Origin: Fistulifera solaris
Lineage: Eukaryota
Assembly: GCA_030295235.1 (NCBI GenBank)
Contig: AP026127.1
Span: 930,001-994,000 of the forward strand
Length of the DNA stretch: 64,000 bases
Reading direction: 5' to 3'
A program made the translations under genes and the position numbers. Of this stretch, positions 39,585 through 54,123 are shown piece after piece. Positions within the stretch are counted from its first letter, which is position 1, and each line of letters opens with the position of its first letter. The notes under the pieces are model-generated. The model was not told where the DNA came from and made no database searches. It saw only the letters and a list, made by a program, of their open reading frames with translations.

Positions 39585-40295
39585 ATGAAAGAAATTGCGC
39601 GTTCCAGAAATTTTGGAAACTGTTGTGTTTTGATCACTCCGAAAGAAAGTGCGTGTTCCAGAATTTCTGGATTCTGGATACGATGTTTCTGGACATACAG
39701 AAATTCTGTGGTGCTCCAGAAATTTTGGACCAGTTTTTCGATCCCTCCGAAAGGCTGTGCACGTTCCAGAATTACTGGACACGTTGTTTTAATCATAACG
39801 AAAGAAAGTGCGCGTTCCAGAAACTCCGGAAACTGTGATTTTGATCATAACGAAAGAAAGTGCACGTTCCAGATATTCTGGATAGGGGAGTACGATATTT
39901 CGTGTCATACAGAAATTCTGTGGTGGTCCAGAAATTCTGGACCTGTATTTTTCGATCCTATCGGAATGATGTACCCGTTCCAAAAATTCTGGACACAGAG
40001 TTTTGGATCATAACGAAAGAAAAAGCGCGTTCTAGAAATTTTGAAAACTGTGTTTTGATCAAAGAAAGTGCGTGTTCCAGAAATTCTGGATAAGATATTT
40101 CTGATCATACAGAAATTCTGTGGTGGTCCAGAAATTCTGGACCAGTTTTTTCGATCCCTCCGAAATGCTGTGCCCGTTTCAGAAACTCTGGAAATGTTGC
40201 CCTTGATCAAAACGAAAGAAAGTGCGCGTTCCAGAAACTCCGGAAACTGTGTTTTGATCATAACGAAAGAAAGTGCATGTTCCAGAAATTCTGGG
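39585..40295. repeat. Minisatellite of roughly 50-bp units built on the palindrome TCCAGAAATTCTGGA, with a higher-order period of about 200-213 bp
   Basis: About 17 variant cores. The recurrent block CATACAGAAATTCTGTGGTG appears near 39693, 39906 and 40106, and GAAAGAAAGTGC recurs between cores. Confidence 0.85.
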
Positions 40296-40826
40296 TACGA
40301 TATTAAGGACTGAATTTCAGTCGCGGCGAAAAGGTAATCTACACTTGTGCCTACAGTGAATTCGACAGCTAAATTTGTGCAACAAATATTGACATGAAGC
40401 ATCAAGCTGTTCATTGAAAAAACTGCCAGAGGTAACGGCATCATAGTTGTTTTAATTGCAATCTATAAAACGCAGATCGAATGAAAATCGAGTAGCAGAC
40501 TGGCTCGCAAAAGTTATGCCTTATGGCTCATGACTGAAATGCAGTCGCGAAAGCCTTCGTAAACCAACACTTTGCGCTACAGTGGACGGACCACGAAAGA
40601 CGACGATGATGCGTGTCTCGCATGTGTCTCGCCTCATCGCAGCTTTGACTTTTTGATCTTGTGCATCACAAAACATTTGGCTTATTCAGACCCGTGCATT
40701 CCATACTATTCAACGTAAAGATTAACTGAGGCCTTGAATAACTGTTGCCTGCTTCTATTGTGCCTACTACCTCGTGAGAAGATTTTCCGTCAAACGACAA
40801 TTAATCATCTGGAGAACGAAATTATC

Positions 40827-41732
40827 ATGCGCGTCCGTCTTGCTCTCGATTGGGCACCCAACGCCAACCACAGTGGCATTTATGCCGCCGTGAAACACGG
40901 ATGGTACCAAGAAGCGGATGTAGATCTCGATATTCAACACCACGACTTTGCCGAAAGTCCGGCGACCAAGTTGGAATTGGACAAGGCGGACGTGGCGCTG
41001 TGCTCCTTGGATTGTTTGCTGAACTATCGTTCGCGAGCGGAACCGCTTCCGGTCAAAGCCATTGCCGCCGTCTTGCAAGACGACTTGGCCAGTATCGCCG
41101 TACTCGAAAGCAGCGGAATCGAACGTCCGGCTCAGTTGGACGGCAAGACCCACGCCTCGTATCGAGCCTGCAACAAGGACGCCACAATCGAGTGTCTCGT
41201 CCGCAATGACGGCGGAAAGGGCGAATTGAACTTTGCTTATCCCGATCAGGTTACCATTTGGAACACTCTTGTCAAGAACAAGGCGGATTCCATCTGGATT
41301 TTCATGAACTGGCAGGGTGTACAAGCGGAACTGGCCGGCGTGGCTTTGCGTCATTTCAAAATGGGCGATTACGGCATCCCCTTTGGTTACTCTCCCATCA
41401 TGATTGCCAACGAAAACCTCAGTACGGATCAGTCTGCTGCTTTGAAGGCTTTTCTCGCCGCGACAGCCAAGGGCTATGCCTGGGCGGCTGCCCATCCGGT
41501 AGAAATGACGGGCATTCTTTTGGAGTGGGCCGCGGAAGACGACAAGAATAAGCCCTTCCTTCAGGCGGCACAAGCTGCGACGAGTCCTCATTACATTTCC
41601 ACCAAGACTGGATCTTGGGGTCACATGGAATCGGAGAAAGTCGAAGCCTATTTGAAATGGCGTGTGGAGTTGGGTCTCGATCCGGAACCGTTTGCTGTCG
41701 ATAAGCTCGTCACCAACGATCTTCTTGGATAA
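40827..41732 (+). CDS. NMT1/THI5-like (ThiY/SsuA fold) protein, copy 1
   Basis: LALDWAPNANH, GWYQEA, SGIERPAQLDGK, ADSIWIFMNWQG, YGIPFGYSP and FLAATAKGY. 301 aa, intronless, no signal peptide. Confidence 0.9.
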   Translation: MRVRLALDWAPNANHSGIYAAVKHGWYQEADVDLDIQHHDFAESPATKLELDKADVALCSLDCLLNYRSRAEPLPVKAIAAVLQDDLASIAVLESSGIERPAQLDGKTHASYRACNKDATIECLVRNDGGKGELNFAYPDQVTIWNTLVKNKADSIWIFMNWQGVQAELAGVALRHFKMGDYGIPFGYSPIMIANENLSTDQSAALKAFLAATAKGYAWAAAHPVEMTGILLEWAAEDDKNKPFLQAAQAATSPHYISTKTGSWGHMESEKVEAYLKWRVELGLDPEPFAVDKLVTNDLLG

Positions 41733-41775
41733 CAAGGTCATTGTAAACTACTTCTCGTGACACGGTAATATGAAG

Positions 41776-41914
41776 TTGCACTCTCGCTGCGGGAGCTTGA
41801 TGTGGGAAATGATATGCTGAGAGTTTTAAAGTCCGTAGTATTTGGGTGGACTTTGTATCGACCGTTCGAACCTGCTCATGGTAATGCATGCGAAAGGGAA
41901 TGTGGGATGTGCAA
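41776..41914 (+). promoter_or_regulatory. TPP-riboswitch-like aptamer in 3' UTR, copy 1
   Basis: P1 TTGCAC/GTGCAA, P2 GCGG/CCGT, J3/2 GCTGAGA, P3a AAAGTCC/GGACTTT, P4 CCT/AGG, P5 CATG-GTAATG-CATG, then CG..AGGGAA. Confidence 0.85.
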
Positions 41915-42339
41915 TGGAAGATTATCAACTAAATGTTGCTGTGGAGAAGTAGGTTAACAACATAGTAGTGAATGAATGATCTAGCAATTACGGAGTAGCC
42001 AAACAATAGTGACTAGTGATTAACTCATCTGAGACCCGTGTTTTTCGTCCGGTGTGTGCGATGACATCACCGGCGGCACGCGCGATCTTTCATAAGATCT
42101 TTTCTTTATTTTCGTCCTCTCATTTTCGTTTGGAACCTATTTTACGTTTCTACTCTTGCCATTTGGCCTGATCTGAATGTATGGCGCGGGTCTGCAACGT
42201 TCATAAGGTTTCTTCAAGTTGAGGTCTCGATCTGAGAAAAGTCCTGACCGAACGACAGAAACAAGAAACAATCTACATTGTCGCGACAGAAAAGATCTCG
42301 TCGGCACATTTCTGTTCATTCGATCATTCGACGATCATT

Positions 42340-43245
42340 ATGGAACGTCTCCGCTTCACTCTCGACTTCACCCCCAACGCCAATCACAGCGGTGTGTTTG
42401 CTGCGATCCATCACGGATGGTACAAGGAAGCTGGCATTGATCTGGAGCTTCAGCATCGTGACTTTCAGCACAGTGGTATCGCCAAGCTGGAGTTGGGGAT
42501 TGCCGATGTGGCGTTCACGGCAATGCTCGTTCTAGGAAGCTATCAAAAGCAGGATTCGTTTCCGATCAAAGCCATTGCTACGGCGATGCAGAACGACTTG
42601 AGCACGATTGCCGTGCTCGCCAAGAGCGGCATTGAGCGTCCCGCTCATCTCGACGGCCGATCGTACGCATCCTGTCAAGCGGGCTTCAAGAACCCCACGG
42701 TTGCCGCTCTGATCCGTAGTGACGGCGGACAAGGTGATTTGACTTTCACTTATCCCGAGAAGATTAGTAGTTGGGAGGCGCTGGCCGAGAATGAAGCCGA
42801 TTCGGTCTGGATTTATCGCAACTGGCAAGGCGTGCAGGCCGAGTTGGCGGGTGTGGATCTGCGTCACTTCACCTTGGGCGATTACGGTGCACCCTATTGC
42901 TACTCTCTCGTCATGGTCGCCAACACGGACTACATTGCTAAGAAAGCGTCGACGTTGCGTGCTTTCTTGGCGGCAACCGCCAAAGGCTATGCTTGGGCCG
43001 CGGAAAATCCGGACAAGATGGCGGAAATCCTTTACGATTGGGTCGCGGATGCGGATAAGCATTTGACGTTTCTCAAGGCAGCGCAAGCTGCCACCAGTCC
43101 CCACTACATCTCTTCCAAGACTGGATCCTGGGGACACATGGAAGTCGAGAAAGTGTATGCTTATTTGAAGTGGCGCAAGGAACAAGGTTTGGAAACGACT
43201 ACCGTGGAGGCCGACGCGCTCGTCACCAATGAACTCCTTGGATAG
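42340..43245 (+). CDS. NMT1/THI5-like protein, copy 2
   Basis: 301 aa, colinear with copy 1 (LDFTPNANH, SGIERPAHLDG, WIYRNWQG). Confidence 0.9.
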   Translation: MERLRFTLDFTPNANHSGVFAAIHHGWYKEAGIDLELQHRDFQHSGIAKLELGIADVAFTAMLVLGSYQKQDSFPIKAIATAMQNDLSTIAVLAKSGIERPAHLDGRSYASCQAGFKNPTVAALIRSDGGQGDLTFTYPEKISSWEALAENEADSVWIYRNWQGVQAELAGVDLRHFTLGDYGAPYCYSLVMVANTDYIAKKASTLRAFLAATAKGYAWAAENPDKMAEILYDWVADADKHLTFLKAAQAATSPHYISSKTGSWGHMEVEKVYAYLKWRKEQGLETTTVEADALVTNELLG

Positions 43246-43288
43246 ACTAGTGGTATGAAAATACTTCTCGTGACACGATAATACGATG

Positions 43289-43427
43289 TTGCACTCTCGC
43301 TGCGGGAGCTTGATGTGGGAAATAATATGCTGAGAGTTTCAAAGTCTATGGTTCTTGAAAAGACTTTGTATCGACCGTTCGAACCTGCTCATGGTAATGC
43401 ATGCGAAAGGGAACGTGAGTTGTGCAA
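43289..43427 (+). promoter_or_regulatory. TPP-riboswitch-like aptamer in 3' UTR, copy 2
   Basis: Same 139-nt architecture. P3a shows a compensatory change (AAAGTCT/AGACTTT) around a fully different loop. Confidence 0.85.
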
Positions 43428-43960
43428 TGGAAGATTATCACTTTAGTGTTGCTGTGGAGAAGTAGATTAACAACATAGTAGTGAATAGTTTATTAATTGA
43501 AAAGAAACAGCCTCCCTCTAGCTTGTCCTAAAGCGTTCGGAGGCAGCGTGAATGAATGATGAGACGAGTCGTATGTCGTACGTCAGTTGTCCGCGCGGAT
43601 CGGATCTTTTTTGGATCTTTCGTCACATTTCGCACTCGTGCATTAGTTCTGCAAAATACCTTCCAATAAATCTCTGTCCTGCTCAGTCCTCATTATTTTT
43701 GTCAACCCCTTTCACCTTTCACGTCATTCAATTTGAATCTTAATACACTATTCAATCATAACAGATGAAGCGTTGAACTGGCTTAACACCATCCACCCAT
43801 TAGGCCGAAATCCAAAATGGCATCCGATCTTCAAAGATACGCATGAGAAAGTCTTGACGCGGGTCTGACGGAAATCAATGGTGGAGATTATGCACGACGG
43901 CTTTTCACTTCATCCTCGATGTGGTGACGGTGTTGAAGACCCACTTTACAAACAGCCAAC

Positions 43961-44869
43961 ATGGAACGCATTCGTCTTGCTCTAGACTGGAAACCCAACG
44001 TCAATCACAGCGGAATTCTCGCTGCGATTCACCATGGATGGTACAAAGAAGCCGGCATTGAGCTCGAACTCATCGATCGCGAGTTGACGCAAAGTGCCCC
44101 GCAAAAAGTCGAGGCGGGCCTCGCAGATGTCGGACTGACCTGCATTGTCACGTTGGCGAGCTACCGCGAGGAAAAGGATTCGCAGCCTCTCAAAGCCATC
44201 GCGTCGCTCATGCAAGAAGATTTGAGTTCCATGGCGGTGCTCGAAAGCAGTGGCATTGAGCGTCCGGCGCAGCTCGATGGGAAGCGCTTTGCGGCTTGCT
44301 CGGTGGGGGGACGGAACCCGACTATCACCTGTCTCATTCAAAACGACGGAGGAAAGGGTGACATCACCTACATTCAATCCGATCGTGTCAATCTGTATGA
44401 GACGGTGGCAGAGAACAAAGCCGATGCTATTTGGCTCTTTAAGAACTGGCAGGGCGCTCAAGCGGAAGCAGCCGGAATCAAGTTGCGTCACTTTACGTTG
44501 GGTGACTATGGAGTGCCTTATTGCTATCCCATTACCATGTTTACCAGCCCCACGTTCCTCGCCGAACATTCCAAGACTTTGCGCACATTTCTAGCGACAA
44601 CCGCCAAGGGTTATGCCTGGGCGGTTGCCAATCCGGAGAAGATGGTGGACATTCTCCTGGAGCAGGTGCGTGACGAACACAAAGATAAGAAATTCTTGGA
44701 AATTGCCTTTGCTGCGACTCGTCCGTACTTTATTTCGTCCAAGACGGGTTCTTGGGGGCACATGGAGCCCGAGAAAGTCAACGCTTACTTGAAGTGGCGT
44801 GCGGAGCAGGGGCTATCCAACGGACCCCTTGCAGTTGACGACTTTGTCACCAACGATCTTCTTGGATAG
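43961..44869 (+). CDS. NMT1/THI5-like protein, copy 3
   Basis: 302 aa (LALDWKPNVNH, SGIERPAQLDGK, WLFKNWQG). Confidence 0.9.
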   Translation: MERIRLALDWKPNVNHSGILAAIHHGWYKEAGIELELIDRELTQSAPQKVEAGLADVGLTCIVTLASYREEKDSQPLKAIASLMQEDLSSMAVLESSGIERPAQLDGKRFAACSVGGRNPTITCLIQNDGGKGDITYIQSDRVNLYETVAENKADAIWLFKNWQGAQAEAAGIKLRHFTLGDYGVPYCYPITMFTSPTFLAEHSKTLRTFLATTAKGYAWAVANPEKMVDILLEQVRDEHKDKKFLEIAFAATRPYFISSKTGSWGHMEPEKVNAYLKWRAEQGLSNGPLAVDDFVTNDLLG

Positions 44870-44912
44870 ACTAGTGATATGAAAATGCTTCTCGTGACAT
44901 GATAATATGATG

Positions 44913-45051
44913 TTGCACTCTCGCTGCGGGAGCTTGATGTGGGAAATGATATGCTGAGAGTTTTAAAGTCCGTAGTATTTGGGTGGACTTTGTATCGACC
45001 GTTCGAACCTGCTCATGGTAATGCATGCGAAAGGGAATGTGGGATGTGCAA
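44913..45051 (+). promoter_or_regulatory. TPP-riboswitch-like aptamer in 3' UTR, copy 3
   Basis: Identical by eye to the copy 1 aptamer. Confidence 0.85.
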
Positions 45052-45370
45052 TGGAAGATTATCAACTAAATGTTGCTGTGGAGAAGTAGGTTAACAACAT
45101 AGTAGTGAAGGAATTATGGTTTGAAACAGCAAGAGACGTTTATCGATACGATACGAAGAAATTTCGTACGATGAACATTTGAAAGATCGTAACAAATGAG
45201 GTTTGAGCAAGTTAATTACCCTGGCAGCTCTTTAGCCGTACAAGCGTTAGACATCATGTCGTATTAAATAGTATCTAGATGTGATGATTATTTGTAAAAT
45301 CTTACTGAAAATCCCATGATAGCCAAAAGTTGGCGAGAGAACGTTGATTTGTTGTTTCTGGGAAGAAAAC

Positions 45371-53380: not shown

Positions 53381-54123
53381 ATTAGAACTTTTTTACAAAA
53401 AACTTACAAAAGTAGCGACAAAACTCACAGGGATCAGCCTGTTCGGCGGTTAAATAATGCTAAAAAACTAGGGATAAAAGAGGAAATAAGGAGGAGACAT
53501 CGCGATCTCCTGTCCGTCAACTGCGCGGAACGAGGCTGTTCAGTCGCCTGCCTGGCCACCAGCTTCCAACTTCAACGCGGAGTCGAACCTCAGCCTACGC
53601 CAAGGATCTACCGCAACAGTCAACCACGAGGAGACGATGCTGAAATTTGCGAAAATCTGGATTTACATAAAATGCTAATATTGTCGCTTCTCGTGTCTCG
53701 TGTTGCCGCAATGTGACGTTTGTGACATTTTCTTATGGCATCCTTCACGACTCACGACTAAAATTTTAGGCTTCTGCGCTTAGTACTTCTCATGGCAGTT
53801 TTGGGTCCCGGGTTTCCTTTTTCATTAACGGTCGTCACACGTCGAGATAGTGCAAAGTAAAGTTACTACGGAGTACTACTGTACCGTACCGTACCGTACC
53901 GGGTACCAGTACCGGTACCTGGTACAAGTAGCTTCAAGCTTCAAGGATGGGGGATGGGCTATGACTATGACATGAGAGACGTGACACATGACGATACATC
54001 GATGAAAAAATGAGACCCTTCGATCTTTGCGATTGCGAGCTTGATTTTTGATCTTTGCCCACTCGCCACACGCTTGCCCATTCAATTGTTGATTTTATAA
54101 ATCAAGCTACAAGATCCAGCAAA

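Follow-up and report, generated by a model that had tools for sequence, protein, structure and literature searches.

Three tandem genes for NMT1-domain (THI5/ThiY-like) proteins lie on the forward strand of a 64,000-nucleotide stretch of the Fistulifera solaris genome (contig AP026127.1, positions 930,001 to 994,000; hereafter the window), and each is followed in its 3' untranslated region (3'UTR) by an element resembling the thiamine pyrophosphate (TPP) riboswitch aptamer. In all three of these elements the first base of J4/5, which with J5/4 forms the junction between helices P4 and P5, is C where the consensus has A. The features are as follows, in window coordinates, with PF09084 denoting the Pfam NMT1 domain and RF00059 the Rfam TPP family.

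40827 to 41732, forward strand: gene 1, NMT1-domain (THI5/ThiY-like) protein of 301 amino acids, open reading frame (ORF) ending in TAA (PF09084, E = 3.3e-44)
41746 to 41972, forward strand: 3'UTR module of gene 1, in which the two strands of a long P1 enclose the aptamer and a conserved tail of 20 nt follows (3'UTR alignment)
41779 to 41917, forward strand: TPP-like aptamer 1, J4/5 C at 41875 (RF00059, 40.6 bits, E = 1.3e-5, model positions 1-105)
42340 to 43245, forward strand: gene 2, NMT1-domain protein of 301 amino acids, ORF ending in TAG (PF09084, E = 2.5e-48)
43259 to 43485, forward strand: 3'UTR module of gene 2 (3'UTR alignment; published Table S1c, row FisN_2Hh420)
43292 to 43430, forward strand: TPP-like aptamer 2, J4/5 C at 43388 (RF00059, 42.7 bits, E = 4e-6)
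43961 to 44869, forward strand: gene 3, NMT1-domain protein of 302 amino acids, ORF ending in TAG (PF09084, E = 3.3e-47)
44883 to 45109, forward strand: 3'UTR module of gene 3 (3'UTR alignment), its last 198 nt identical to 41775-41972
44916 to 45054, forward strand: TPP-like aptamer 3, J4/5 C at 45012 (RF00059, 40.6 bits)
45123 to 45126, forward strand: poly(A) addition site of the gene 3 mRNA, 14-17 nt past the module end (run X2, record 16)

The NMT1 domain was recognized in all three proteins (E = 3e-44 to 2.5e-48), and NCBIfam returned weak SsuA-family matches (28-44 bits against a cut-off of 163.5). The ORFs are uninterrupted and align end to end with bacterial relatives of 302 residues, and transcript contigs (runs X2-X4) are colinear on genes 1 and 3, which bears out an earlier reading of this DNA from its letters alone (the sequence-only reading) that the three NMT1/THI5-like genes are intronless. 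Rfam, searched at an E-value threshold, gave full-length RF00059 matches of 139 nt to each element (E = 4e-6 to 1.3e-5), the length already proposed for one aptamer per gene, with the P1-P5 architecture complete in all three cmscan alignments (model positions 1-105); no further TPP match was present in the window at E ≤ 0.1. The CUGAGA pyrimidine-sensor motif (within GCUGAGA) and the GCG motif of J5/4 are found in all three copies, the consensus A at the first J4/5 position (A61 of thiM) is replaced by C in each (CCUG-C-UC), and GCGAAAGGG is likewise read from the window sequence in each. The sequence-only reading had these motifs exactly and correctly placed both changes in the pyrophosphate-sensing P4/P5 junction; its spacing of 43 nt from stop codon to aptamer becomes 46 nt by Rfam coordinates. 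Because the E-values are joined by 90-98% identity among the 227-nt 3'UTR modules, against 62.5-66.4% among the coding sequences, sequence comparison supports the view that the aptamer matches exceed chance. The isolated 139-nt aptamers gave minimum free energy (MFE) folds that lack the consensus P2/P3 and are no better than those of shuffles (z = +0.74 and +0.77), and these were not used as evidence for the aptamer fold.

Both the locus and its aptamers are already published. Aptamers 3, 2 and 1 with their flanks are, letter for letter, the extended sequences of hits 29, 30 and 31 in Table S1b of Llavero-Pasquina et al. (2022, New Phytol 235:1853; PMC9544697), where they belong to the F. solaris 'THI5-like' genes FisN_2Hh421, FisN_2Hh420 and FisN_2Hh419, and hits 26-28 are the corresponding F. 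solaris trio of the second subgenome. Table S1c of the same paper gives P1 as ~40 nt on its 5' side and ~50 nt on its 3' side, with elements of 203-205 nt in total (205 nt at the 3'UTR of gene 1), and its J4/5 column prints 'GCT' for FisN_2Hh419-421, so that sequence, 3'UTR position, long P1 and J4/5 are the same in the published elements and in the window. In the sections bearing on F. solaris, the authors report multiple NMT1-domain genes with predicted aptamers, the absence from their proteins of the signal peptide that NMT1 proteins of diatoms otherwise have, and a grouping of these proteins with green-algal ones, consistent with horizontal transfer (Llavero-Pasquina et al., 2022). With its entries in these tables, the locus is not in itself a new finding. 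What is new here is the gene 3 mRNA running through the aptamer to a poly(A) site, the gene-conversion tract, the counts of the J4/5 C outside diatoms, the link of published thiM A61U data to J4/5 and the observation that the proteins lack Lys62 and His66 of THI5. Our search of the literature after 2022 found nothing beyond that paper on the binding or function of diatom TPP aptamers, nor any paper that discusses the J4/5 C in diatoms, a base on which Llavero-Pasquina et al. (2022) do not comment.

The conserved module starts ~14 nt past each stop codon in the alignment of the three 3'UTRs and shows the traits of diatom aptamers, namely the 3'UTR position, GCGG in P2 (UGCGGGAGC in the window aptamers), a P3a stem, conserved P4/P5 and a long P1. 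The other diatom 3'UTR aptamers, on THIC, SSSP and FOLR genes, likewise share all of these, and the diatom aptamers of Croft (2007) and McRose (2014) are listed in Table S1a of the published set (Llavero-Pasquina et al., 2022). The identity of the modules stands out from their surroundings, as fourfold degenerate sites of the coding sequences are 34-44% identical (Jukes-Cantor distance 1.0-1.6) and the 5' flanks of the three genes 21-28%. Copies 1 and 3 have in common a 198-nt identical run (41775-41972) that includes the normally free P3a loop, and in the first 30 nt of the module copies 2 and 3 group together instead. Such a mosaic bears the signature of gene conversion, and because the copies have been homogenized in this way they count as about one observation rather than three independent ones. 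The modules of the second subgenome and of F. solaris FOLR were compared by eye from the text of Tables S1b and S1c; by this comparison the second-subgenome trio has other P3-loop letters, common to all three of its members. Within the window, aptamer 2 stands apart from the other two, its differences lying in the loops of P3 and P3a and on the 3' strand of P1. Over the six THI5-like copies of both subgenomes the differences are confined to the P3 loop, P3a loop and P1, and the ligand-contacting core is unchanged, which speaks for selection on the core.

In MFE folds of the module, CUUCUC, GUGACAC, GAUAAU, GUUGCAC and CUCGC of the 5' flank pair with GUGAG, GUGCAAU, AUUAUC, GUGUUGC and GAGAAG of the 3' flank, and this extended P1 forms a long interrupted helix of ~40 nt per strand that carries the aptamer at its tip. 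One base pair of the helix varies among the three copies (copy 1, C.A; copy 2, C-G; copy 3, U-A), and against the F. solaris FOLR module GUUGCAC/GUGCAAU becomes AUGACAC/GUGUCAU, with two pairs changed on both sides (by eye, Table S1c); this covariation supports the long P1 helix. The sequence GGUAAU in the 5' flank of copy 1 was considered as a 5' splice site and dropped, copies 2 and 3 reading GAUAAU. Once the 5' flank is removed from the fold, AUGUUG... of the P1 3' strand can pair instead with CAACAU of the conserved tail. This alternative hairpin is weak (-10.3 and -11.7 kcal/mol) and no better than shuffles (z = -0.21 and -1.03).

Transcript evidence came from the contigs of runs of one study (X1-X4), none of which is recorded as RNA. 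X1, which covers all 30 bins, intergenic ones included, has the look of DNA. X2-X4, assumed to be RNA, have cover on the genes and 3'UTRs and zero depth in the intergenic bins 41932-42239 and 43318-43779; their contigs lie over gene 1 at 40778-41804, show no splice joint on genes 1 and 3 and give no cover of the gene 2 3'UTR. Record 10 of X2 joins the coding sequence of gene 1 to the 5' part of aptamer 1 (41354-41804), and record 16 covers 44986-45126 and then continues into 22 A's that are absent from the genome. The gene 3 mRNA, as read from this one contig and on the guess that its run is RNA, spans the aptamer and the entire module and is polyadenylated 14-17 nt beyond. The sequence-only reading had considered that transcripts might end before the aptamer; for gene 3, record 16 runs on to ~45126. 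Contigs of X2 and X3 on gene 3 (43979-44941) share the same 15 mismatches and stop where the aptamer P3 loop begins, and their probable source is the copy in the second subgenome, in which case that copy is expressed as well.

TPP aptamers are also known from other eukaryotic genes of the thiamine pyrimidine, namely plant THIC (Wachter et al., 2007) and fungal NMT1 (Cheah et al., 2007), as cited by Llavero-Pasquina et al. (2022). These riboswitches use alternative splicing, whereas the window aptamers have no AG acceptor in P2 (diatom GCGG) and no joint was seen in the contigs; the plant THIC riboswitch lies in the 3'UTR, as here, and is described in the same source as acting on 3'-end processing. 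Single-exon PF09084 genes with a 3'UTR TPP riboswitch have been described in other lineages by McRose et al. (2014; PMC4260697), among them an intronless SSUA/THI5-like gene of Micromonas RCC299.

Among structures in the PDB, the gene 2 protein matched 4nmy_A (E = 1.3e-30), an ABC-type (ATP-binding cassette) solute-binding protein, and 3ix1_A, the ThiY of Bacillus halodurans that binds N-formyl-4-amino-5-aminomethyl-2-methylpyrimidine (FAMP; E = 2.2e-21 over residues 2-279). The match to THI5 (1.6e-5) covers ~100 N-terminal residues only. ThiY and 4nmy are thus full-length sequence matches of the same fold family, from which the window proteins differ in being ~25-30% identical and without a leader, and no ABC transporter gene was present among the seven large flanking ORFs of the window that were scanned. 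In THI5, Lys62 forms the imine with pyridoxal phosphate and His66 is the substrate in the active site, according to the passages on its mechanism in PMC10848271. In gene 2 these residues face T and V (phmmer alignment to 4h6d); alignment A1 puts C opposite both in gene 1 and T opposite both in gene 3. Because both are replaced in all three proteins, we infer that the THI5 reaction is ruled out and that the proteins would not make hydroxymethylpyrimidine phosphate in the THI5 way; in this they differ from the fungal NMT1 protein, a true THI5 enzyme.

Only 2-3 residues precede the first conserved strand in the gene 1-3 proteins, against a further 25-45 N-terminal residues in lipoprotein relatives, and judged by this length the three have neither a signal peptide nor a lipoprotein leader. 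The nearest named relatives are signal-less Bacteroidota proteins of 302 amino acids (40% identity). The signal-less NMT1-domain clade (L042-L121) has at least 593 bacterial matches, the best 80 being nearly all from Bacteroidota, and its Bacteroidota proteins (~302 amino acids) are 40-48% identical to the diatom proteins, which fits a bacterial origin of the diatom genes, as against the green-algal grouping reported in PMC9544697. Across 16 bacterial loci no conserved neighbour genes were found around members of this clade. At one of these (L051, 1741-6263) the order is a TPP riboswitch (58.7 bits), a TonB-dependent receptor, the signal-less NMT1-like gene, a 2-oxoglutarate-Fe(II) oxygenase-like ORF on the other strand and a PnuC-like transporter. 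A fourth F. solaris paralogue, FisN_6Hh163 (P0009), is 58% identical to the gene 2 protein, keeps the bacterial-type insert GNDNYTQSPAKK (noted with P0013) and has no aptamer hit in Table S1b (PMC9544697); the three genes with aptamers may descend from it as the older copy.

How widespread the J4/5 variant is was counted by us over the 40 author-validated hits of Table S1b (PMC9544697), as follows.

J4/5 AU: 18 of 40 diatom aptamers, on various genes
J4/5 AA: 11 of 40 diatom aptamers, on various genes
J4/5 CU: 11 of 40 diatom aptamers, on F. solaris THI5-like (six) and FOLR (two) genes, Thalassiosira pseudonana THIC, Asterionellopsis glacialis THIC and one unannotated A. glacialis hit

Thus J4/5 in the other diatom aptamers is mostly AU or AA, as against CU in the window, and GCU stands at J4/5 in 10 of the 32 rows of Table S1c, on THI5-like, FOLR and THIC genes. 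Since it is also present beside THIC and FOLR genes, the J4/5 C is a recurrent diatom variant and not a mark of the THI5-like cassette. Nor is GCGAAAGGG unusual for the lineage, since a 4-nt J5/4 (CGUG, CGAA, CGAU or CGAG; CGNN) is common among the diatom aptamers of both tables. In Tables S1b and S1c, F. solaris is the only diatom whose THI5-like (NMT1-domain) genes carry an aptamer.

The bacterial sample comprised 133 TPP aptamers (130 in 121 Bacteroidota genomes, two from two further genomes and one from L051), for which flagged rows were read by eye. The first J4/5 base was A in 122, G in six and C in three, with two of the 133 unparsed. Of the three C aptamers, read by eye, only L143 keeps a pocket that is canonical in other respects; it scores 73.2 bits and its position is upstream of a TonB-dependent receptor. 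Counting the A-to-C change and its flanking genes, a check that the sequence-only reading had proposed, thus showed C to be rare in bacteria and yet present in more than one diatom gene family. JGI metagenome contigs, scanned for a diatom-type P4-P5 with any J4/5, yielded 41 loci, a few of them probably bacterial, with AU at 26, AA at 15 and CU at none, and all 41 have CUGAGA upstream. The 40 ORFs upstream of these aptamers included ThiC (14), TenA (three) and one each of SSF, PhyH, DAO and histidine kinase, with no Pfam match for 19 and no NMT1 domain in any. On three metagenome or metatranscriptome contigs (L006, L038 and L041) diatom-type aptamers lie 143-215 nt downstream of ORFs of the TENA/THI-4 family, which is outside the four aptamer-associated diatom gene families as these are listed in PMC9544697. 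About 10 of the 133 Bacteroidota TPP-like aptamers (L123, L124, L227, L237, L242, L243, L245, L248, L250 and L252) are without the GCG bulge, leaving a nearly continuous P4-P5 helix (e.g., ACCUGGGCAGGUAAUGCUGCCAAGG). Most of these score below or near the Rfam cut-off, L123 and L124 are upstream of TonB-dependent receptors, and they may be a variant class without a pyrophosphate pocket.

Our data suggest, with moderate confidence, that the published cluster FisN_2Hh419-421 bears a diatom-type, TPP-like 3'UTR module that is transcribed, lies beside a poly(A) site, is kept by selection on its core together with gene conversion, and sits on genes for cytosolic proteins of the NMT1 fold. These proteins would bind or process a compound of the thiamine pyrimidine type in the cytosol, and the module would be a cis-acting element of the 3'UTR that has TPP or a near relative of it as ligand and influences formation of the 3' end or stability of the mRNA rather than splicing. 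Within F. solaris, the J4/5 C and the J5/4 of 4 nt belong to one 3'UTR module family that is also present on FOLR genes; they are variants of the diatom aptamer family and appear to be no adaptation to the THI5-like proteins.

Several points weigh against this explanation. At the Rfam gathering score (54.3 bits) there are no matches, the three aptamers all lying under it at 40.6-42.7 bits, and the modules have MFE z-scores (-1.14 and -0.54) that do not stand out. A P1 of ~40 bp should be stable with or without ligand, which speaks against classical switching through P1. The likeness of the copies could be due to gene conversion alone, so that conservation within the window overstates selection. 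The poly(A) site comes from one contig of one run of guessed RNA status, and contigs are blind to minor isoforms. Among the bacterial homologues a TPP riboswitch is nearby at 1 of 16 loci (L051), so the thiamine link of the clade is thin. In the experiments reported by Llavero-Pasquina et al. (2022), which were made in Phaeodactylum tricornutum and T. pseudonana, not in F. solaris, transcript level, splicing and polyadenylation were unchanged by thiamine or hydroxymethylpyrimidine (HMP), and a mutated PtTHIC aptamer left thiamine levels undisturbed. The statement in the sequence-only reading that diatom 3'UTR aptamers had been reported as unresponsive to thiamine is therefore correct.

A former riboswitch that no longer senses a ligand, its module kept for protein binding, stability or 3'-end processing and spread by duplication and gene conversion, is a possible though less probable explanation, and is close to the proposal that Llavero-Pasquina et al. 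(2022) make in their interpretation, of lost thiamine regulation with another function retained. With so long and stable a P1, a ligand would have little scope to drive a switch, the module and its flanks are also present on otherwise unrelated F. solaris genes (THI5-like and FOLR), and the 198-nt identical tract shows that conversion has been recent. However, changes in the P3 and P3a loops and P1 around a core intact in six copies are the pattern of selection on a binding pocket, and the association with thiamine genes has been kept across diatoms, where the published survey describes 32 aptamers on four thiamine-related gene families (Llavero-Pasquina et al., 2022).

It is rather doubtful that the module is a working canonical TPP riboswitch, in which TPP would alter poly(A) site use or mRNA decay and so lower expression of the THI5-like genes when thiamine is plentiful. 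The ligand-contacting motifs are kept except for the J4/5 A (CUGAGA, GCG, P4/P5 helices), the poly(A) site lies directly past the module, and the predicted AUGUUG/CAACAU pairing could form next to the cleavage site. In Micromonas RCC299, genes that bear riboswitches are reported to respond strongly to thiamine depletion (McRose et al., 2014). In contrast, PtTHIC showed no thiamine response, alternative splicing or polyadenylation and TpTHIC no response in the assays described by Llavero-Pasquina et al. (2022). A single 3' end is all that was seen, in contigs that cannot show minor isoforms, and the alternative hairpin next to the cleavage site is the weak one described above.

A change of ligand within thiamine metabolism has a precedent in the HMP pyrophosphate ('thiS motif') riboswitch, which is related to the TPP class but has another ligand and a much reduced architecture; the window aptamers keep the full TPP architecture. 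The window C is the equivalent of A61 in thiM of Escherichia coli when CCUG-C-U-CAUG is set against CCUG-A-U-CUGG, which we take to be the thiM sequence. A61 coordinates a Mg2+ ion, stacks on G60 and C63 and hydrogen-bonds C77, and its change to U lowers TPP affinity ~3000-fold, from 0.74 nM to 2200 nM, so the premise of the sequence-only reading that the J4/5 A matters has published support in the thiM measurements (bioRxiv 10.1101/2025.01.21.634073). Ligands that avoid the pyrophosphate pocket still bind despite A61U, and A61G is harmless, as described for thiM in the same preprint. In our MFE folds C 41875 pairs with a G of the GCG motif (41892), a lead from the energy model, and such a pair would close the pyrophosphate pocket.

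These observations, with the rarity of C in bacteria (3 of 133) and its absence from the 41 environmental aptamers with the same P5, would favour a shift of specificity, in which the J4/5 A-to-C change and the extra J5/4 A reshape the pyrophosphate pocket so that thiamine, thiamine monophosphate or a pyrimidine salvage product is sensed, in co-evolution with the THI5/ThiY-like proteins. The thiamine unresponsiveness of diatom aptamers could be counted in its favour too, but it is reported for the GAU aptamer of P. tricornutum THIC and the GCU aptamer of T. pseudonana THIC alike (Llavero-Pasquina et al., 2022), and therefore does not track the A-to-C change. The same C on T. pseudonana and A. 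glacialis THIC and on F. solaris FOLR shows no pairing with THI5-like proteins, a J5/4 of 4 nt is frequent among diatom aptamers, A61G did not impair thiM, the consequence of C is extrapolated from A61U, and the bacterial L143 has C in an otherwise canonical pocket. We thus consider this shift of specificity improbable, and the co-evolution of aptamer and proteins that the sequence-only reading had put forward is not supported by the sequences, because the C is also on THIC and FOLR genes, unresponsiveness is independent of it and the three copies are one gene-converted lineage. There is likewise only a slim chance that the C-type junction (CCUG-C-U) of F. solaris THI5-like and FOLR and of T. 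pseudonana and A. glacialis THIC marks an aptamer subclass with a weakened or C-G-closed pyrophosphate pocket, which would sense a thiamine-related compound that is not pyrophosphorylated (thiamine, HMP, 4-amino-5-aminomethyl-2-methylpyrimidine (AmMP) or FAMP) and act on the use of a downstream poly(A) site; if true, this would explain why thiamine feeding reads out as 'no riboswitch'.

Elsewhere in the window, the genes flanking the trio are unrelated to it (GlmS-like, pantothenate kinase-like and others). A tandem array of ~10 copies of a 52-nt unit (66% matches) lies at 39757-40294, ~530 nt upstream of gene 1, and accounts for the repetitive ORFs on both strands there. On the reverse strand at 53498-53639 there is a partial match to RF01856, the protozoan signal recognition particle (SRP) RNA (model positions 77-216; 44 bits, where the cut-off is 65), which is probably an SRP RNA gene.

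Diatom TPP-like aptamers that are conserved and yet unresponsive to thiamine are a published puzzle, and this locus, with six copies over two subgenomes, is among its clearest cases. The pyrophosphate-pocket base is A or C within diatoms, yet almost fixed as A in bacteria, which could sharpen a comparison of binding. The cost of A61U reported for thiM (~3000-fold) and the poly(A) site of gene 3 directly behind the module could likewise sharpen such a comparison.

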